DNA of 64,000 bases from a virus. The notes below the pieces were generated by a model, which was given only the letters and a program-made list of their open reading frames with translations, was not told the DNA's origin and searched no databases. Below, piece by piece: positions 1,906 to 57,405 of this stretch. Numbering within the stretch: position 1 is the first letter of the stretch; the number at the start of each line of letters is the position of its first letter. A program made the translations under genes and the position numbers. Location of the stretch: positions 1-64,000 of the IMG/VR virus record IMGVR_UViG_3300005573_000055; one strand, given 5' to 3'.

Positions 1906-4900
1906 ATGGCTATAGATTTATCTCAAAATAAAGAACTAAGTTCTCTTATATCTAAAGACAAGATAAGTGCTAAGTTCTTGGAAAACATTAACCGCGGAGA
2001 TATCGTTGTTGTAGATTACGACGAAAACAATAACCAAGCTCTTGCAAGAAAGCTTATCACTAATCTAAGTGATGTTCCGCTTACATACCAGATGCTTGGA
2101 GAAGCTGCAGGCGGCGTAGGATGGATTGTTCAGCTTGATGAAACAACGGGTGTTTTTGGTTATACTTCAAATAGTGCTTTTATAATGATCCCATTTAAAG
2201 TTAATGATGACAAAAGCATGTCATTTGGTAGCGCTGCAAGATATTCTGATAAAACATATATAGGCCTTGTGCATGGCGTAAAAATATCAGACAGTACTGG
2301 CATATTTGCCGTGTATGCTACTAGCAGTCCTTGTGTAACACTTTATGGATTTTATCTTGATAAAAACACATTATCAATAAGTTCATCGACAACCACCGTC
2401 TCAACCGGTTATTACTCTTCTAGTTATCGATTAAGACTGATTCCACTTGCATATAATAAATGTGCTGTTATCTATGGAAATGATAGTAATTATGCGTATT
2501 GGTCTTACTTTTCATATACTGTTAGCAGCAGTTCTATCTCTTTAAGCAGTCCGTCAACCGAAGCTTCGCTGCCTGACAATTATATGTGGCAAGGTACGGG
2601 CTGTTCATTGCCCGATGGCTCTGGTTTAGTATTACATGCTTCCTCAAATTTTTGGTATATCTATAGATTGATACCTACTACTACAGCAGTAAATATAATT
2701 AGTATTAAATCTGGATATTCTGAATATCCATCTGCAAGTACTGCACGGTTTTACGATGCTGTATCTTTTGAAAATGGTGTTGCTTTTATATATGGAACCA
2801 ATCTTTATTTTATGCGATGTATTCCTGCTTTAAACTTTTTTGATTATTACAATACACAATTAATCAGCACTAATTTTTCATATTTTGCATATTTATATAA
2901 CTATATTTCCAATAATATTCAAACTCTTATAGCTTTATCGAGTGGCGGACGTTCGATAAAACTATTTCGCCGAGAAAGTGATACAAACTTTATATCGCAG
3001 TCATACACCATCGTATATAATAGCTGCGGATTGGTAATTTCTAATGGTAATTTTTACGTTTTAGAATCGGTTTACCCTAATGCCACAGTATTTTGCAATA
3101 CAGGTATCGCTCTTTTATATAACGGTTCAGCTTCTTCTAAACAAAGTAATCTTAAATTGCCGCTTTACTCTGACACAATAAGTCGATATGCAGACAACGC
3201 ACATGCCGCTCTGCTTAATTCAAATACTGTTGTAGAAGCTTTTGTAGGTTCCGTTATTGGCTATATAAGACTTGGAACGATAAACACAGATAATACAATT
3301 ATATGGACATCCCCCATTCAATTTGCTTCTTCTGTTGCTAATCTAAATGGAATTGGCACATCAATAAAAGTTGTTATTACTGGTACAAACACAGGCGTAA
3401 TCATTTATGGATATTCAAGTACCTTATATGCGATAGCATTTAGCATTGATAATAACACATTTACTTTTGGAACAGCGGTATCTCTAAGCTCATCTTTTAG
3501 TTCGTCTTACAGCATTGATGCAGTGCTTATCGATACAGACAAAATAGCAGTTACAAGTGTCAACTCATCTAATTATCCGATAGCCGTTATTTTAACAAAA
3601 AACAATCTTACATTATCATTTGGAACTTCTGTTGTCATATACAGCGGTTCGCCTGGAAATGGCCAGTCTGCAATAATTTCAAAGCTTGGTACAAATAAAT
3701 TTCTTGTAAGTTATGTATATAGTTCTACTGTTGGATGTAAAGTGGCTACGGTATCTGGTACAACAATATCGCTTGGCAGTGAAACGTCTGTTGGTTCAGG
3801 AGGCTATGTTCAAGCTATTTCTGTTAGTACAGATTCAGCTGTTATATATAGGCCTTCTTATCTTAGTATAATTTCTGTAAGTGGCACAACAGCTACTGTG
3901 TCAAACAACATAAATTATTCATGGCTTTTATCATCATGGATACCATTTGATTTTAAGCTTACAGGCAACTATGCAATTTTAGCTCTTAAAGAAAATGCAT
4001 CTGAATATTGCTTGATGCATGTGATATTTGATATATCAAATAACTATGCTGTATATGGCGAAAGCTGTCTATCAAGAATAAATTTTAATACAAGTTACGC
4101 TTTAGGATATGTACTCCCTATAGATTCAACGAAGTTTTTGCTCGGGCATGCATATTCCAGTTTCTATGCTCATGGATTATATTCAATTGATAACAATGAG
4201 TATGATTCATTATTAACATTGACAGACATATCTCAATCTGTTTTCCGTCCTATAAACCAAACACAGATACTTAGAGTATGTTATACTTCTTCGCTTTATG
4301 TACAGATCATAGAAAAAACACCGCTTGGATTTGTTGGATACAGTCAAACTACAATAAGCGGTAACTCTATTTCAAGTTATATTCTTGAACAGCTTGATAC
4401 TAATAAATTTGTTGTTGGATATTATTGTCCAGGTAATGGTTATGTATATGCCAATGTTCTTACAGTCTCCGGTACGTCAGTTTCTGTTGGCTCATCAAGT
4501 TATTTCTATACGAGTACATATATTGATGGAAAACAACTAAGTATAGCTGTACTTGATATATCTAAATTCGTTTGTGCATATGGATATAATTCACCAACAT
4601 ATGTATGTGTTGGCACCGTCTCTGGAACAAGTGTCAGTTTTGGATCTGTCTATAACTATAATGGGTATGGTCAAATTATCGCAATAGATAATACAAGATG
4701 CGCACTATTTGCTTATGATGGAGCATATGTTCTTTCTATTTCAGGTACTTCTGTATCAGCTACATCACAATATACTTATCCAACTTCATTTTATGGCACT
4801 TCCTATACAGTGCGAGCAATAAAAAATGGATCAGACTACATAGTGTTTGGACAGATATATCAAAATTCGCAGTACTACTTATACTCATACACTTTTACGC

Positions 4901-37469: not shown

Positions 37470-38203
37470 ATAAATACTTTAACATATTGCTTATTATAGC
37501 TTTCATCATAGTGCTCGTGTGTGTGTATTTAAAAAATAAAGCACTCCAAGATGAAATATCCTATTGGCAGAATCAAGCTATTAAGAAAGATAGCCTTATT
37601 CAAATTGATTCTGTCAACTACGAGATAATATCTAAAGAGCGGAACCGTCTTATATCTGAGAACAACAAACTTCTGCTCCTTGCAAAGCAAAACAAGGAAG
37701 AGATTGTATATCTCTTAAACCTTAAAGCCAAGTATGAACTCGCTTTATCTAATATTCATACTAAGCCTGCAGATACAGTTGTTATTTTTGATAAGCCTGA
37801 TAGCCTGGCTCGTATCTTTTCAGTTGAAGTTGATAGTACTCTTAAGATAAGCGGTGCATTCCAGACACATGAGCCATACTATATTAGCTTTAGTGAAATA
37901 TTATTTAGAGCAGCTTTGAATATAATATTGTCTCAAGATAAGTATGGATATTGGCATACGCGTATATCAACAAATTCACCTTATCTTAAACTTGAAGAAG
38001 CAAGAGTGCAGGTTTTAAGCAGGGATGATAATTGGAGATTTTTCTATGGTGGTGGTTTTTCTTTATTTGAAAGGTCGCTTGGCATAGGTGGTTTATTTGG
38101 AGTGCGTAAGAGGGATTATGGTGGGAGTTTGTCATTTACATATCAGCAGCATGATGGCAGACTACTGCCTCTTTGGTTTGTAACACTATATAAATTCATG
38201 TAG
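37466..38203 (+). CDS. Putative spanin-like protein
   Basis: N-terminal TM, coiled coil, C-terminal Gly/aromatic amphipathic beta strands; follows the endolysin with ATGA overlap. Confidence 0.55.
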   Translation: MNKYFNILLIIAFIIVLVCVYLKNKALQDEISYWQNQAIKKDSLIQIDSVNYEIISKERNRLISENNKLLLLAKQNKEEIVYLLNLKAKYELALSNIHTKPADTVVIFDKPDSLARIFSVEVDSTLKISGAFQTHEPYYISFSEILFRAALNIILSQDKYGYWHTRISTNSPYLKLEEARVQVLSRDDNWRFFYGGGFSLFERSLGIGGLFGVRKRDYGGSLSFTYQQHDGRLLPLWFVTLYKFM

Positions 38204-48667: not shown

Positions 48668-48925
48668 TTAGTTTACTTGTTCCATGTTTCTATCTAAGAT
48701 TTCCTTTACTTTAGCTTCTATGTCTTCGATTGTAATTCCAAGTTTATCCATTAAGATTAAATATATGGCTTCTGTATTTAGAAGAGCTGTTTGTGTGCCA
48801 TGATTTATTCTTTGAACTTCTTCCCGAAGAGTAATGAAGTCTTTTGCAATAGCGCGCATTAACTCTTCAAAGCCTTCTGAACTGCCTTGTTTGTTTAAGT
48901 CGTCTAAAGTGATAATCTTAGCCAT
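48668..48925 (-). CDS. Hypothetical protein
   Basis: 85 aa with AAGGAG RBS. Confidence 0.6.
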   Translation of the reverse strand: MAKIITLDDLNKQGSSEGFEELMRAIAKDFITLREEVQRINHGTQTALLNTEAIYLILMDKLGITIEDIEAKVKEILDRNMEQVN

Positions 48926-48961
48926 TCTTTCTCCTTGTGATTGGTGGTTGTGTGTGGTCTT

Positions 48962-50017
48962 TTAAAGTTGAACGAACTTAATTAACTCAACAGGGTTACT
49001 TTTATGAACTACTATAATGGTTTGTTCAGAATAACCTTCTGGTATAAGCAGGCTTCTTGCAAATTGGTCTTGAGCAAGGAAAGAACCATTTCTAATTACT
49101 CGTGCCTTGCCCGCAGTGACAACCATTGTGTCATGAAAGTGCCCTGTAAGTATAACATCTACTTTATCGGAAAGTGCCAGTCCCAAGATGGAAACCTTTG
49201 ATGTTGGTGTATAGAGATTCCTTTTCATCTCATGAATAGCACCAAAGTTCCATCCTTTGACATTAAAGACTATGTCAGGTTTTTCTGTGGCATATTGGAT
49301 ATCAACATTTTTGATATCATTGTAATTCTGCTTGGCAAATTCGATCATTTTCTCAAGCAGAATGTAAACCTGTGTATCATAATTGTCTTTAATGGGATGG
49401 AACAGTTTTTCCTGGGTGCGGCTTTGGCCGTGATTGCCTGGCACTCCATAGATGCGTATTTTGCAATGTGGAAACAGCCTTTGCAGTTTAATGATATTAC
49501 GCAGAAAGCAATCCACAGAGGCCATGATTTGGGAGACAATACTTTCTTCAATCATGGCCTTCTGGAAACTAAATATGCTGCCGTCTCCTTCGAGTAAGTC
49601 TCCGCCAAAAACTACAACAACTTCATCGAAAGCTTGTTCTCCTAAGAACTTAATTGTAAGAATCGCATTGTCGAATAAACTATCGACTAAAGTTCGTGCT
49701 TTTTCTATATCAAAGATGATTGTGCCGTTCTTCTCAAATACTTTGCCGAAATGCACATCAAATATGTTTATTATTAAAGCACGCTTATCTATATCGGTTT
49801 CGGAGTAGTTTTTTGGCGGTCTGCCTCGTCTTTTCTTTGCTTGTATTTGCAACTCTTCGCTAAGGCTTTCTATGGACTCCAGTATAGCACTCTTGATGTG
49901 GTGTTTTAAGAGTGCTCTTTCTTTATAGCCAAGGTTTTTGGCTTTCTCGTCCAGTAAATTTATAAGCCTTATGTCGTTGCCATTTACAGAGAATTTCTGC
50001 CTTAGAGCTTTTCTCAT
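48962..50017 (-). CDS. Calcineurin-like metallophosphoesterase with AT-hook
   Basis: DVHFG, GDLLEG, GNHG, IH and GHFH motifs; KRRGRPPK AT-hook. Confidence 0.85.
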   Translation of the reverse strand: MRKALRQKFSVNGNDIRLINLLDEKAKNLGYKERALLKHHIKSAILESIESLSEELQIQAKKRRGRPPKNYSETDIDKRALIINIFDVHFGKVFEKNGTIIFDIEKARTLVDSLFDNAILTIKFLGEQAFDEVVVVFGGDLLEGDGSIFSFQKAMIEESIVSQIMASVDCFLRNIIKLQRLFPHCKIRIYGVPGNHGQSRTQEKLFHPIKDNYDTQVYILLEKMIEFAKQNYNDIKNVDIQYATEKPDIVFNVKGWNFGAIHEMKRNLYTPTSKVSILGLALSDKVDVILTGHFHDTMVVTAGKARVIRNGSFLAQDQFARSLLIPEGYSEQTIIVVHKSNPVELIKFVQL

Positions 50018-50049
50018 TCTTCTGCCTCGACTTGTGTGTGTGTAAATTT

Positions 50050-52401
50050 CTATCGCACACGAGCTACTATGTAGCCTTCATCTGTGCGGATTTTAAGTAT
50101 GAGCGGATCATAACTGTCTGTCTCCATGACTTTGTGTAATACTTTATCGAAATCTCTTCTTAGTTGATCTATAGAGATTATCATCTCTCTTGGAAATTGT
50201 GTCTTTCTTGTACCTGATGACAATACTTTCAAATCTTCAACTGCATAGCTATCCTTGAACCGTCTGTACTTGATGCCTATAAGCTTATTGTAATAGTGAA
50301 GCTTGAATTTGTCTGCTTTTAGTTTTTCATACACATTGTTAAATACAAATAATGTGATAGGATCTTGCTGATAAATGCTCCTAAAAAGCAGTGTTAGACC
50401 ACGACCATTCTTGAATTTCTTGTGTGATACTATGAATCCTACAGTACAGAGATATCTTTTATCTTTGTCAGATAGAAATTCTTCTATCTCTTTGCGATAT
50501 ACATCCCCCAACGTTGATGTAAACCACATGTTGGTTACTTCGTATTCAAAATCTAGACGTTTCTCAATAGGATAATCAAACTCAAGCGGTACATCGAGTA
50601 TTTCATCGTGCTTTGGTATTCTAAAAAGGTAGTCTTTTTCTCTAAGTAGATGTACAGCTTCGCTTAGATATTCTATAAACGAAAGATCATTTTCTACATG
50701 TAATAGCTGTGCGCGTGTTAAGAACCGCTCTAAACACCCAGCCTTTGCCAATGCTGTTAGGCTATTTGTCTTGATGCCAGTTCTTATAATTAAATCACTT
50801 AAAGACTTAAAAGGTCCACCTTTTTGTCTTTGCTCGAGCAGAACTTGAGCATCTGAACCTAGACCTTTAATGCCGCTTAGTCCAAACCTAATTCTATTGT
50901 GGCCTACAACTGTAAATTCAGTTTCCGATTCGTTAACATCGGGCGGATAAACTTCTATACCAAAATTGCGTGCTTCATATATGAACTCTGTCATCTTTTG
51001 GAGGTCATTGCTTTCAAATATCAAGTTAGCTGCATAGAACTCATCTGTGTAATGTGCTTTAAGATACGCAGTCTTTGCTGTGATAATTGAGTAAGATACA
51101 GCATGACTTAAATTGAAAGCATAAGCACTGAATGATTCCATTTCATTCCACAGCTGATCTATTTCCTCCTCCGTCATGCCAATCTGCATAGCTTTATCTC
51201 TAAAGCGTTCCTTTTCCTTTACCATCTTTGCTTTCTGCTTTTTGGCAACGATCTTACGAAACTCATCTGCCTCCTGGTCACTATAGCCTGCTATAAGCTG
51301 AACTGTTTTTTGGATTTGCTCTTGGTAGATAAAATATCCGTATGTACTTTGTAAAACGCTTTTCAAGACTGGGAATCGTTCAGCTTGCGGAATTATATCA
51401 GGCTTTTGATTATTGCGGATTTTGAGTATACTGAACAGAAAATCCATCGGGCCTGGTCTAAAGCCTGCTGAGATGAGTACTATGTCAGAAAACTGCTTTG
51501 GCTTAAATTGCTTGATAAACTTTGTTATGCTATCACCTTCAAACTGAAATATTCCAAGCAGATTGCCTGATGATATTAGTTCATATGACTCAGAGTCGTT
51601 GATTGGTATATCTTCTAGTGAAAGCTTGATACCATGGTTTTTCTCTATAAGTTTTAATGTTTTCTCTATAACAGACAATGTCTTAAGGGCCAGCATATCG
51701 ACTTTGAGAAATCCCAAAGCTTCCACTTCATTCATATCACATTCGGTAATGATTTCACCTTCGCTTTCCCAGATGGGAATTGTCTCATAAAGCGGCTCGT
51801 TTGATATAATTATACCTGCAGCATGTGTAGAGCGCGATGATATCAAGCCCTCCATTTTGCGAGCAAGATCGATAACTCTCTTAGCATTACTGTCTTTCTC
51901 ATAGATGGTCTTGAAATCTTCATTCAAAGAAAGAAGACTGTCTATGGTCCAATTTGTTCCCTGCACAGGATCAGGAACCATATTTGCGAGCTTGTCAATA
52001 AAGTCAAATTCATATCCTAAAGCCTTGCCAACATATCTGATTGCTGACTTAGCATACATCCTATTGAATGTCCCTATCCTTGCAACATGAGAAGGACCAT
52101 ATTTATTCTTGATGTAAGAAACAACCTCATCACGTTTATCTTTGTCGAAATCTATGTCTATATCTGGAGATGTGCCACCTATATATTTTGGCAGACCAGT
52201 TGGCTTCTCATCCGTAATTCCTATAAGATAAGCTATAGTAGAATTTTGGTCGTTGGTAACCTTGATGCCTTTCTTTTTTAATGCAAGAAAGTAACCTTCC
52301 ATGTTGTATATTTCAACAGCACCTATTTCTTTCCTAAAAGCTGCATAGTCTATCTCACTGAGTCTGCTGCTGCTTAGACAAAGTTCTCTTAGTGTTCCCA
52401 T
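50050..52401 (-). CDS. dnaE: DNA polymerase III alpha, C-terminal part (catalytic palm, thumb, fingers, HhH)
   Basis: SPDIDIDF, STHAAGI, GFLKVDMLALKTL, GIFQFE, YQEQ, YAFNLSHAVSY, PPDVNES and IRFGLSGIKGLG. Confidence 0.93.
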   Translation of the reverse strand: MGTLRELCLSSSRLSEIDYAAFRKEIGAVEIYNMEGYFLALKKKGIKVTNDQNSTIAYLIGITDEKPTGLPKYIGGTSPDIDIDFDKDKRDEVVSYIKNKYGPSHVARIGTFNRMYAKSAIRYVGKALGYEFDFIDKLANMVPDPVQGTNWTIDSLLSLNEDFKTIYEKDSNAKRVIDLARKMEGLISSRSTHAAGIIISNEPLYETIPIWESEGEIITECDMNEVEALGFLKVDMLALKTLSVIEKTLKLIEKNHGIKLSLEDIPINDSESYELISSGNLLGIFQFEGDSITKFIKQFKPKQFSDIVLISAGFRPGPMDFLFSILKIRNNQKPDIIPQAERFPVLKSVLQSTYGYFIYQEQIQKTVQLIAGYSDQEADEFRKIVAKKQKAKMVKEKERFRDKAMQIGMTEEEIDQLWNEMESFSAYAFNLSHAVSYSIITAKTAYLKAHYTDEFYAANLIFESNDLQKMTEFIYEARNFGIEVYPPDVNESETEFTVVGHNRIRFGLSGIKGLGSDAQVLLEQRQKGGPFKSLSDLIIRTGIKTNSLTALAKAGCLERFLTRAQLLHVENDLSFIEYLSEAVHLLREKDYLFRIPKHDEILDVPLEFDYPIEKRLDFEYEVTNMWFTSTLGDVYRKEIEEFLSDKDKRYLCTVGFIVSHKKFKNGRGLTLLFRSIYQQDPITLFVFNNVYEKLKADKFKLHYYNKLIGIKYRRFKDSYAVEDLKVLSSGTRKTQFPREMIISIDQLRRDFDKVLHKVMETDSYDPLILKIRTDEGYIVARVR

Positions 52402-52582
52402 AGTAATGTTCCGTAGTTTGACTGCGTCTGTTGGCTAATTCAGATATGGGCAAGTTTGAAAGTGATATATGTGATACTGACATGAGTGCAAATATCCATG
52501 TAAAGATGGAGTTGTCTTTATAGCCCGTAAATATATATTTTAACTCTGGGTTGTTGCCTGTAAGCCTGATTGCATTTGACAT
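52355..52582 (-). CDS. Small ORF bridging the two dnaE parts
   Basis: 75 aa, GAGG 7 nt before ATG, overlaps both dnaE ORFs in another frame. Confidence 0.35.
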   Translation of the reverse strand: MSNAIRLTGNNPELKYIFTGYKDNSIFTWIFALMSVSHISLSNLPISELANRRSQTTEHYYGNTKRTLSKQQQTQ

Positions 52583-53880
52583 TGTTCAGCCTCATATATT
52601 TCATATGGATATTCTTTGAAGCTAATAACTGGTTTGGCAGCTCTGCCTTTATTTAGAAATCTTGCAAATGACAAATCGTAATCCAGTGGGTTGACATCTG
52701 TAATACCTAAGGCATATGAGATAAGACATCCAGCTGCGCTTCCACGTCCTGGCCCTACGAGGATTCCATTGCTTTTGGCCCACAAGACATAATCTTGCAC
52801 TATCAAAAAGTATCCAGCATATCCAGTCTGCTCAATTGTCTTAAGCTCCATCTCGATGCGATCATATATCTTCTTGTCTATGCTCTTGCCAAACCTTCTT
52901 CGCAAACCTTCAAAGACCAGCTTACGTAAAACAACATCCTCCTTGTCGGAAGGATAAAGCTGCGGAAGCCTATTTTTGCCCATCTCTATATTGACATTAC
53001 AACGTTCGGCTATTTCAAGAGTGTTATCTATGGCTTCCTTAAAACCCGAAAATCTTTCGAGCATATCTTTATAGCTGTATAAATGATATCCATTGCCTGG
53101 ATATTTAATGTTTTGCATTTTTGGATCACTAAGTGTAATATTATCTCTTATAGCAAGCATGATATCGTGGGCCAGCACATCTTCTTTTTCGATGAAATGA
53201 GTATCTGATGTAGCTACCAGCTTAATACCATACTTCTTTGCCAAAGAAGGAAGACTATCAAGAAGTATTGAGTCTTCTATCGTATTGTGATTTTGAATTT
53301 CAATGTAAAAACGATCACCAAAGATTTTCTTATGCCACGAGATAATCTCTTCTGGATCTTCCAAGACATTTTCCTGATGATTGCATTCTATATTGCTAAA
53401 ATCCCCATCCTGGTTGAAACTTTTCTCAATGCCATGCTTCTTTAAAATAGCCGAAGCCAAAGCACCACCTGCACAGCCAGAAAGACATATTAAGCCTTCG
53501 TTATACATTCTGAGAAGTTCACGATCTATTCTGGGCTTGTAATAAAAATGGTCTTTGTTGTAGCTTAAACTTACAAGCTTAATCAAATTACGCCAGCCTT
53601 GGTTATTCATAGCAAGCAGTGTAATATGTGTATATTTGTCTACACCTGGCTGTTTGTCAAACCTCGAACGAGTTGCCATATAGGCCTCTACGCCAGCAAT
53701 AGGTTTAATACCATACTCCTTGGCATATTTAAATAATGATATAACACCGCCAAGTGTTCCATGATCTGTAAGAGCTATTGCTGGAAGACCATAGGCTTTT
53801 GTTTTATCCATAAGCTCATCTATCTTGCAAATACCGTCTCTTATAGAAAATATCGAGTGCAGATGAAGCGGGGCATACAT
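52540..53880 (-). CDS. dnaE: DNA polymerase III alpha, N-terminal part (PHP domain and start of palm)
   Basis: HLHSIFSIRDG, ALTDHG, GIKPIAGVEAY, FYYKPRID, ATSDTH, GPGRGSAAG and FARFLN. Confidence 0.93.
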   Translation of the reverse strand: MYAPLHLHSIFSIRDGICKIDELMDKTKAYGLPAIALTDHGTLGGVISLFKYAKEYGIKPIAGVEAYMATRSRFDKQPGVDKYTHITLLAMNNQGWRNLIKLVSLSYNKDHFYYKPRIDRELLRMYNEGLICLSGCAGGALASAILKKHGIEKSFNQDGDFSNIECNHQENVLEDPEEIISWHKKIFGDRFYIEIQNHNTIEDSILLDSLPSLAKKYGIKLVATSDTHFIEKEDVLAHDIMLAIRDNITLSDPKMQNIKYPGNGYHLYSYKDMLERFSGFKEAIDNTLEIAERCNVNIEMGKNRLPQLYPSDKEDVVLRKLVFEGLRRRFGKSIDKKIYDRIEMELKTIEQTGYAGYFLIVQDYVLWAKSNGILVGPGRGSAAGCLISYALGITDVNPLDYDLSFARFLNKGRAAKPVISFKEYPYEIYEAEQCQMQSGLQATTQS

Positions 53881-55025: not shown

Positions 55026-55066
55026 ACCTCAGAGTGTGTGTGTGTGTGATTTGCACTGGTCTTTTG

Positions 55067-56140
55067 CTATTCTGCCTGTGATAGTGCTTGTGTGGTTAGT
55101 TCTTCAGTGCAAAATACTTTTTCTACTTCAGATTCTATAGCTTGTAAGAGTTCTGGCTTCTCTTTCAGAGTCAATCGGCAGTTCTCCAAGCCTTGACCTA
55201 TTTTCTCATCGCCAAAAGAAAGCCAACTACCGGATTTCTTAACTATATCTGCCTGTATAGCCAAGTTGAGAATATCCATCTCTCTTGAAAAACCTTCTCC
55301 CGGGTAGAGAAATAGATTAGCAAAGAGATAAGGCTTAGCAGTTTTATTCTTTGTTGCTGTAACACGTACTTCTTCGCCGATATACTGATCACCACGTTGG
55401 ATCTTACCGCCTTTTGTCTTAGAAAGCTCTAAAGCTACATGAGCATAAAACTTCATAGCATTGCCGCCTGTAAAAGTCTTAGAACCAACCATTGAAGCCA
55501 GATTAGCTCTCAGCTGGTTGATGTAGATAATGGATATTCTGTTTTTTCTTGCAAGAGCAGTTACCTTACTGAAATGCCCCGACAATAGCCTTGCAACGCT
55601 TGCTATGCCGGGACTTTCTTCAGCATATTTATCCTGCTGATCTACTGTCGATAAAGCGGCTACCGAGTCTAAAACTATCAGGTTAACAGAGTTGTTTTCT
55701 ACCAGCGCCTGAATGATATTTAACGCCTCTTCGGCGGATTCTGGTACACTGACAGTGAAACTCTTATCTTTACAATCTACCTTAATACCATAAGCTTTTT
55801 CTACATATGCGCTATCAAAAGAACCTTCTCGATCAATCCAGTGGACAGCACCTCCTGCTTTAAGCACGTGAGATGCTATTACATAAGCTAAAGCTGATTT
55901 TCCAAGAGATTCATATCCATATAGATTTACTATACAGCCAAGTGGAAAACCTGCTTTTTCGCCGTAGTGATATCCAGATAGCACAAAGTTCAAGGAAGGA
56001 AGACTTAGCTTTAGGCGTTCTGTCTTTAAAAGACCATCTTGAGGATCGATAAAGATATTCTTTCTTTTGTAATAAGCAGCAAGAGAAGCCTCAGCTAAAT
56101 CTATCTTCTTTGGATCAAAAGTTAATTTCTTCTCTTCCAT
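55067..56140 (-). CDS. recA: RecA recombinase
   Basis: Walker A GYESLGKS, IVLDSVAAL, INQLR, GGNAMKFYA, KNK and KSGSW..GQG.EN. Start is ATG 56140 with AGGAG RBS. Confidence 0.95.
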   Translation of the reverse strand: MEEKKLTFDPKKIDLAEASLAAYYKRKNIFIDPQDGLLKTERLKLSLPSLNFVLSGYHYGEKAGFPLGCIVNLYGYESLGKSALAYVIASHVLKAGGAVHWIDREGSFDSAYVEKAYGIKVDCKDKSFTVSVPESAEEALNIIQALVENNSVNLIVLDSVAALSTVDQQDKYAEESPGIASVARLLSGHFSKVTALARKNRISIIYINQLRANLASMVGSKTFTGGNAMKFYAHVALELSKTKGGKIQRGDQYIGEEVRVTATKNKTAKPYLFANLFLYPGEGFSREMDILNLAIQADIVKKSGSWLSFGDEKIGQGLENCRLTLKEKPELLQAIESEVEKVFCTEELTTQALSQAE

Positions 56141-56231
56141 GTATATACTCCTAAAATGTGCGCTCGTGTGTGTGTTAAAAAATCCCCCTTGTTTTTTTAT
56201 ATATAAATAACTATCAATATGTTTTAACAAT

Positions 56232-56273
56232 TAAAAAAAAATAAAATGTGGTGTAAGATTGCTCCTACACCAC
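56232..56273 (-). terminator. Intrinsic terminator closing the nrdJ-recA intergenic transcript
   Basis: Minus strand gtggtgtagga-GCAA-tcttacaccac followed by a T-rich tract (attttatttttttt). Confidence 0.8.
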
Positions 56274-57160
56274 TCTGAGGATGACCACCACACACACCTC
56301 ACAAGGCAGACTTTTCAAGAAATAGCTAGTAGTTATGCAGCCTTTGGTGTTATGATGGTTCTGTACTCATACTTTGACAAACTCTAGTGAGACCTACACT
56401 AGAGGTGCTCGGACCTCATGTCGCCCCTTGAAGGCCCATCGTTACACCAGGTCCATCGAGAGCTAAACAATGTTTAGCTCTCAGGTCTCAAAGACTAGAC
56501 TTTCGTCTAGCTATAAACTTTAATAAACTGATTTTTTTTCTATAAATAGTAATATTTCGTAATAAGCTAACTCTAGATTGATCCTATGAAATGGATTTTA
56601 TCCAGAGCTAGCTTTACGAAATATTACTTGTCTTTAAAACTTTGGCATATAGGTGGTATTAACAATTGTCTTTATACAATACAATGTACCATTACAATGT
56701 ATTAAACACTTGTGAACAATAAGTGCCAGAAGAGAAATTCTGTTTAAGAACAAACCACCTGTTTCAAAACATAGCCTTCCGACTATGTTTAACTCACAGA
56801 TTGATTAAAACTTTAGGCTCGGAGAGCCTTAAGCCTTCAAGCATGTTGTGCTACAAAGTAATACAACTCGAAGATAAAGCTTGTCTTTCGACAAGTAAAG
56901 CTAAAACTAAAACTTTGGTTCGGTCAACCGAACCAAAGCCCATTCGCCGATCCGGCTGAGTTGGGCTTCTCACGCGTAACAATAACAACGTTTTGTTACG
57001 CGATATACATAGACCTTATCTTTCGATAAGCCAAAACTTCATATTAGCAAAGAGAAGAACTTTGCCTTAAACCTTATCCACACAAAAACCTTTTCTTCTA
57101 CTTATCGAAGTCGTCACTAAAGTCAGCATATCAATATAGTCCTTCGATAAGCACCAAAGA
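56232..57160 (-). ncRNA. Putative large (~900 nt) structured non-coding RNA, family unassigned
   Basis: No credible ORF and more than 12 hairpins. Five minus-strand GNRA tetraloops, G-U wobbles mostly favouring the minus strand, a possible pseudoknot and a terminal terminator. Confidence 0.65.
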
Positions 57161-57400
57161 TATGATTTAGCTAAAAGCATATCTAGATAGATAATCTATA
57201 TAGCTAATAGCTATCATCAAAGATTATCTAATCTAGATATGCTTAGCTATATTGATATCCATATCATATAGATATGTATAGCAAGTATATCATCTAGTAT
57301 AGATATGCTATATCCCATGTGGATCTATCTAGCTATATGATATCTATATAGATAGTCTATCTATGATATGCTTATCTATATAGATATATATATCTAGGAA
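57160..57400. repeat. AT-rich low-complexity palindromic region (TAGATA/TATCTA units)
   Basis: Long imperfect hairpin 57168-57249, nested TATCTATATAGATA palindromes, a perfect DnaA box at 57074-57082 and an 8/9 box at 57406-57414. Confidence 0.7.
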
Positions 57401-57405
57401 ATCTC

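Follow-up and report, generated by a model that had tools for sequence, protein, structure and literature searches.

The locus lies on an IMG/VR virus contig of 155.5 kb (estimated 88% complete, ~37% GC), and the window analysed here is the first 64 kb of it. From 38.4 kb to the end of the window at 64 kb, the minus strand carries all credible genes. Read along this strand, a gene for a retron-type reverse transcriptase (RT) is followed by several small genes, the ribonucleotide reductase gene nrdJ, a non-coding spacer of 1264 nt and recA, which encodes a RecA/UvsX protein (the listed frame 55067..56230 is recA extended upstream to a TTG). Beyond recA lie two unknown genes, a DNA polymerase in two ORFs, an exonuclease, an ORF of 85 amino acids and a primase-helicase (Table 1); searches of Pfam, PHROG and Atlas gave no lead on the product of the 85-aa ORF. 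The DNA polymerase (PHROG 405; 50050–53880, minus strand) is split such that 52540–53880 corresponds to profile positions 44–442 and 50050–52401 to positions 443–1081, with a 75-aa ORF (52355–52582) spanning the junction between the two; a natural split could explain this arrangement, as could a frameshift or an intervening element.

The nrdJ–recA spacer opens with an AT-rich palindromic array (~57150–57400), continues with ~900 nt of GAAA-loop hairpins on the minus strand and ends in an intrinsic terminator. The array, which adjoins the structured RNA, has TATCTATATAGATA-type units as the building blocks of its nested palindromes and may be an origin or operator region. Within the structured RNA, a near-perfect AU-rich hairpin of ~90 nt (56540–56631, minus strand) differs from the short GC/GNRA hairpins surrounding it. 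The terminator is formed by a GC-containing stem-loop (56273→56248; 5 GC pairs in the stem, 4-nt loop) and a U-run (56246→56233); the plus strand has a hairpin with no T-run after it, so the terminator is minus-only. From the nrdJ stop (57406) to the terminator, the minus strand has no ORF of at least 40 aa. The minus strand is plausibly the RNA strand, given the minus-only terminator, the minus-strand genes, GNRA loops and G-U pairs that read correctly on this strand only, and the better minus-strand fold of the ~900-nt region (minimum free energy (MFE) of −308.8 kcal/mol compared with −265 kcal/mol for the plus strand; that is, 44 kcal/mol more stable). Rfam gave no match anywhere in the 155-kb genome at the gathering threshold, including to GOLLD, ROOL and other large phage non-coding RNAs; at E ≤ 10, the region 55900–57600 returned nothing but microRNA-precursor hairpins in the AT-rich array (57150–57400), which are spurious. 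The only promoter-like site for a short RNA is weak (56380–56352, 9 of 12 matches). The transcription, processing and any regulatory effect of the GU-rich RNA described below are inferred.

Table 1 Features of the replication module and the nrdJ–recA spacer (window coordinates)
Feature	Position	Strand	Description
nrdJ (ribonucleotide reductase)	57406–60234	−	
Internal CA-rich arm (target mimic)	56340–56359	−	Pairs with 56284–56307; folding
AU-rich unpaired loop/linker	56311–56339	−	Upstream of the GU segment; folding
GU/pyrimidine-rich 'anti-leader' segment	56271–56310	−	Read directly; duplex predictions
Intrinsic terminator	56232–56273	−	11-bp stem, GCAA loop, long U-run; stem present in every fold
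recA leader	56141–56183	−	(CA)5 + AGGAG; 7th of 174 leaders with the short seed
recA (RecA/UvsX)	55067–56140	−	ATG at 56140
recA 3′ site	55027–55048	−	15-nt CA tract + UCUGAGG, just before the recA terminator
Exonuclease leader	50018–50049	−	(CA)5 + GAGGCAGA; second-best predicted target, −33.6 kcal/mol
Exonuclease	48962–50017	−	
85-aa ORF leader	48926–48961	−	CA tract + AAGGAG; best predicted target, −36.4 kcal/mol
85-aa ORF	48668–48925	−	

Next to the terminator, the minus strand is rich in G, U and pyrimidines. This segment is composed of an anti-Shine-Dalgarno (anti-SD)-like stretch, UCUGCCUU (56310→56303), a GU core, GGUGUGUGUGGUGG (56298→56285), and CCUCAGAGUG (56280→56271), three of whose ten bases fall inside the terminator stem. 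An earlier note on this DNA had quoted the GU-rich RNA (minus strand 56306→56271), the adjoining terminator and the leader (48959→48931) that immediately precedes the 85-aa ORF and its ATG at 48925, and direct reading showed their sequences and coordinates to be correct. The complementarity that it had described between the segment and this leader (GACCAC, the CA tract and UCACAAGG, which overlaps the SD) was reproduced by RNAduplex: the GU core and GGUC pair with the CA tract and GACC, and UCU:AGA and CCUUGUGA:UCACAAGG cover the SD AAGGAG, at −36 to −38 kcal/mol. Present as well was the exact 10-nt complement of CCUCAGAGUG reported after recA, namely CACUCUGAGG (55036→55027), which adjoins the 15-nt CA tract. 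The leaders of the 85-aa ORF, the exonuclease and recA have a common geometry, with the CA tract 5′ of the SD, and the SD is covered in all three. For recA, this can be achieved by UUCUUGAAAA (56321→56312), which lies in the AU-rich loop; the 60 nt upstream of the terminator pair with the recA leader at −34.4 kcal/mol with UUCUUGAAAA over the SD.

We compared this complementarity with chance expectation. Tracts of at least four CA units occur 19 times in the genome, compared with 4.6 expected under a first-order Markov model (maximum of 8 in 30 simulations), and are concentrated in the replication module (at 48.9, 50.0, 55.0 and 56.2 kb) and within a GC-rich island (100–108 kb). About 13 of the 19 lie in effectively non-coding DNA, all of them mRNA-sense except for the copy at the GU-rich segment. 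As GU repeats pair indiscriminately with CA repeats, the 14-nt GU core was held fixed and the flanks alone were shuffled. The 85-aa leader stood out with a 39-nt seed (P < 0.001, 0 of 1,000 shuffles) and with a 47-nt seed (P = 0.016), the exonuclease leader was marginal (P = 0.02–0.03) and the site after recA was weak (P = 0.09–0.17); the recA leader was above chance with the 60-nt segment (P = 0.016, against shuffled leaders), but not with the short seed. Summed over the four replication-module sites, the flank signal was modestly significant (P = 0.004). The CA tracts at 37.5, 100 and 107 kb showed no flank complementarity to the segment in core-fixed shuffles, and complementarity beyond the repeat itself was found in only 2–3 of the ~13 sites. 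Among 174 predicted translation-initiation regions (mean duplex energy −19.0 kcal/mol, s.d. 4.8), the two top-ranking leaders were those of the adjacent 85-aa ORF (z approximately −3.6) and exonuclease (z approximately −3.0). When the whole genome was scanned without restriction, the leaders were surpassed in duplex energy by several windows that are coding or GC-rich. The signal of complementarity between the segment and the leaders is real but moderate.

Folding contradicted the description of the segment as a single-stranded seed in the earlier note. The segment is instead placed in a 19-bp helix (17 Watson–Crick and 2 G-U pairs) with the internal CA-rich arm, formed by ACCAUCAUA:UGUGGUGGU, ACACC:GGUGU and AAGGC:GCCUU and closing a 32-nt AU-rich loop. 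Whichever 5′ end was tested, both the MFE and the centroid structure contained this helix, which forms on the minus strand only; the segment is predicted to be paired with a probability of ~1 in every transcript that is longer than ~130 nt or includes 56340–56359, so the accessibility typical of a GcvB-like seed is not predicted there (unpaired probability ~0). Freeing the segment costs 17.7 kcal/mol (MFE) or 19.3 kcal/mol (ensemble). These properties favour a purely structural explanation, in which the segment would be simply the 3′ strand of the last helix (56284–56307:56340–56359) of the ~900-nt RNA, and its likeness to the leaders a by-product of CA/GU repeats. We consider this rather unlikely: the stability of the helix does not exceed that of composition-matched shuffles (z of only −0.8), the unstructured 32-nt loop that it closes is unlike the tight GNRA tetraloop hairpins in the remaining RNA, and the exact flank words common to three different leaders are left unexplained.

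The predicted masking also depends on the length of the RNA. The GU run is predicted to be largely open only in RNAs of ≤95 nt, with a 5′ end at or below 56330, where a small GAGG/CCUC hairpin carries it in its loop; an RNA cut within the AU-rich loop is likewise predicted to have a free seed. An intermolecular duplex of −36 kcal/mol outweighs the opening cost of 18–19 kcal/mol, and the target leaders are less structured than their shuffles (z of +1.0 to +1.6), so that net pairing is predicted to be favourable even from the masked state. Raising the temperature to 65 °C leaves the duplexes with −18 to −19 kcal/mol. An alternative stem that would free the seed (56436–56449:56345–56358) was rejected as uncompetitive, the seed-free MFE being 17.7 kcal/mol worse in a nearest-neighbour calculation that does not score pseudoknots.

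The segment could also be an inert or DNA-level element, involving no RNA–RNA regulation: a slippage-prone (CA)n leader motif may have been duplicated in inverted orientation, or (TG/CA)n may act on the DNA as a protein site, as Z-DNA, in recombination or as an origin near the AT-rich array, which is 0.9 kb away. The plus strand at 56266–56312 does read as two tandem leader units of a CA tract followed by GAGG or AAGG, plain DNA matches are at the genome-wide chance level (BLAST E of 0.56–7), the CA-repeat system is specific to this phage and the CA tracts of the 100–108-kb island belong to a different element with a AATCGAACTA box. An inverted copy nevertheless accounts poorly for two or three leader flanks standing side by side in one 40-nt stretch, for the placement of this stretch exactly between the structured RNA and the terminator and for the summed flank signal, and the strictly mRNA-sense orientation of the other intergenic CA tracts favours an RNA-level role of the motif. 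Taken jointly, we regard the inert and DNA-level options as unlikely, yet, like the structural helix, as a serious competitor of the explanation that we favour below.

More doubtful still is an element that acts in cis only, through pairing with the recA leader on read-through or alternative pairings at the terminator, and has no trans targets; under this reading, recA translation would come exclusively from its own promoter. The MFE structure of a read-through RNA (56365→56120) indeed pairs 56284–56321 with 56148–56183, including the recA SD, in preference to the internal helix, and the pairing with recA exceeds that with shuffled leaders, as given above for the 60-nt segment. Such a long-range helix would, however, have to span a strong terminator and an AU-rich spacer, the flanks of the core seed are no more complementary to recA than expected by chance, and the strongest complementarity is to genes 6–7 kb away. 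The alternative raised in the earlier note, a fifth copy of the CA-leader motif on a divergent plus-strand transcript, is highly improbable: a CA tract and GAGG are present as in genuine leaders, but the GAGG abuts the ATG with zero spacing, the open frame has 14 codons, and 38.4–64 kb holds no plus-strand gene, plus-strand terminator or promoter call.

We tentatively propose that the GU-rich segment is an anti-leader of the GcvB/DapZ kind that acts either in trans or, on recA, in cis; we place this possibility somewhat short of an even chance. A minus-strand transcript would run through the nrdJ–recA spacer and stop at the terminator (56273–56233), with the anti-leader in a 3′-proximal position. 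Its GU core would pair with the CA tracts upstream of the ribosome-binding sites (RBSs) of neighbouring replication and recombination genes, and pyrimidine-rich bits just 5′ of the core would match the SD of each gene (CCUU, UCUGCCUU and UUCUUGAAAA). With both CA tract and SD paired, the structure-free CA-rich leader would be lost and the RBS blocked. The trans targets would be the 85-aa ORF and the exonuclease, and recA would be reached in trans or, upon read-through of the terminator, in cis. In the full-length RNA, the anti-leader would be masked by the CA-rich mimic at 56340–56359; unmasking could proceed through strand displacement, which is thermodynamically allowed, or through cleavage of the AU-rich loop, which would release a terminator-bearing RNA of ~90 nt. 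It is improbable, but conceivable, that the ~900-nt RNA as a whole is a self-masked riboregulator, in which a signal, cleavage or temperature frees the anti-leader and thereby shuts off translation of the polymerase-associated, exonuclease and RecA genes; if true, this would constitute a phage-encoded timing switch on CA-repeat translation enhancers.

The suggestion in the earlier note that several replication genes are regulated in trans thus holds up in part. In its favour, the two best of 174 leaders belong to adjacent replication genes and have their SD covered; against it stand the predicted masking of the seed and the CA tracts at 37.5, 100 and 107 kb that lack flank complementarity. The promiscuous pairing of GU-rich RNA in general also counts against an anti-leader. 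The anti-leader is a computational lead from a single genome, with moderate statistical weight. If real, it would mean that a lytic-type phage controls its own replication and recombination genes post-transcriptionally, through a GcvB-like GU-rich regulator that acts on dinucleotide-repeat translation enhancers and has a decoy built in; a mechanism well studied in enterobacteria would thereby reach an uncultivated phage lineage, and the large structured RNA between nrdJ and recA would gain a concrete function.

DapZ, which has a GcvB-like GU-rich seed, and CpxQ are 3′UTR-derived sRNAs that use the terminator of their parent mRNA. The present candidate resembles them in that its seed lies directly 5′ of the intrinsic terminator of a coding transcript (nrdJ), and the AU-rich stretch upstream could be a processing site. 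In contrast to DapZ and CpxQ, the terminator is separated from the end of nrdJ by 1.1 kb containing a very large structured region, and both processing and a separate promoter are putative. CisR is reported to be a phage-related example of a 3′UTR-derived sRNA (PMC13250501). GcvB silences CA/ACA-rich leaders, which act as translation enhancers, by means of a GU-rich seed (PMC3879156). As with the G/U-rich R1 seed of GcvB, a GU-rich RNA is here complementary to CA-rich sequence upstream of or overlapping the SD in several mRNAs, and the predicted effect—loss of an unstructured enhancer together with occlusion of the RBS—is the same. Unlike GcvB, the RNA is encoded by a phage and would be directed against replication genes of that same phage, its seed is at the 3′ end and predicted to be masked, and its targets carry pure dinucleotide repeats; there is no homology in sequence or structure, as the GcvB covariance model (RF00022, with the R1/R2 regions and hairpins) gave no match. 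If real, the anti-leader RNA would plausibly be unrelated to known families while using a mode of action that is already known.

Among RNAs of phages and prophages, AgvB is an anti-sRNA of enterohaemorrhagic Escherichia coli prophages and a CA-rich mimic of GcvB targets (PMC4104026), and lambda PreS is a phage-encoded base-pairing RNA (bioRxiv 10.1101/2024.10.31.621285). The present RNA would be, like these, a candidate phage-borne small regulator that acts by base pairing, and its internal arm at 56340–56359 falls within the same CA/GU logic as the AgvB mimic. AgvB and PreS differ in acting on host RNAs or sRNAs, whereas the two predicted partners here both come from the phage itself. The DRT3a reverse transcriptase copies an ACACAC template in the DRT3 non-coding RNA (PMC13174585), and the phage genome similarly combines ACACAC-type RNA tracts with a gene for a reverse transcriptase. 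The phage RT is nevertheless of the retron type by PADLOC (best matches to retron RT types III-A, XI and II-A) rather than UG3/UG8, and is encoded 7 kb away. A DRT3-type link between RT and RNA was rejected on the RT type and because a 154-kb relative (G001) keeps an RT without any CA tract, and the chance that the CA/GU tracts serve as templates for the phage RT is very small.

Relatives were sought through RecA, by a single-protein scan, a search of 5.8 billion proteins and alignment-based scans of viral and metagenome contigs. The best match in the search of 5.8 billion proteins had 50% identity, and across these approaches the nearest relatives had 42–50%; three loci of RecA relatives (L004, L005 and L013) were not syntenic upstream of recA. 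Three related genomes (G001, G002 and G003) contained no CACACACA at all and no comparable system of CA/GU tracts. Neither blastn nor nhmmer detected a homologue of the 900-nt RNA in any of the loci fetched from relatives, blastn of the spacer against the phage GenBank collection gave no match, and relatives based on NrdJ were unrelated high-GC phages only. The homologue of the retron-type RT in G001 is at C1:103128–103889 (minus strand; 39% identity, E = 4 × 10−48), and the same genome has a hairpin-rich non-coding tract directly after an nrd gene (L004, 2270–2700) that shows no similarity to the RNA in the window. In L005, from a relative with 42% RecA identity whose genome is without CA-repeat leaders, a GGUGGUG-rich stretch (4290–4360) precedes an intrinsic terminator after a 157-aa gene.

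Some further repeats were observed in the phage genome. Directly after the CA tract, the recA leader has the 9-mer CACACGAGC (56162–56170), as does the site at 37.5 kb (37513–37521), and its complement, GCUCGUGUG, is in the minus-strand RNA just upstream of the CA tract of the exonuclease leader (50056–50064); the genome has no occurrences beyond these three, and the two words are a possible second GU:CA pairing partner. In the GC-rich island, which is outside the window, the CA tracts at 100152, 100525 and 107780 (minus strand) are part of the repeated element mentioned above, which comprises a GC hairpin, one to three (CA)n tracts and then the box AATCGAACTA. The box has exactly three copies in the genome, always in this setting, and the element looks like a promoter or regulatory cassette. 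A tRNA/tmRNA scan found none; minihelices resembling a tRNA acceptor/T-arm (GTTCAAGTC loop), which were not called by ARAGORN, are present on the minus strand at 100752–100842, ~101150–101260 and 109083–109128, where they adjoin non-coding tracts that are GC-rich (0.47–0.55) for a genome of 37% GC.
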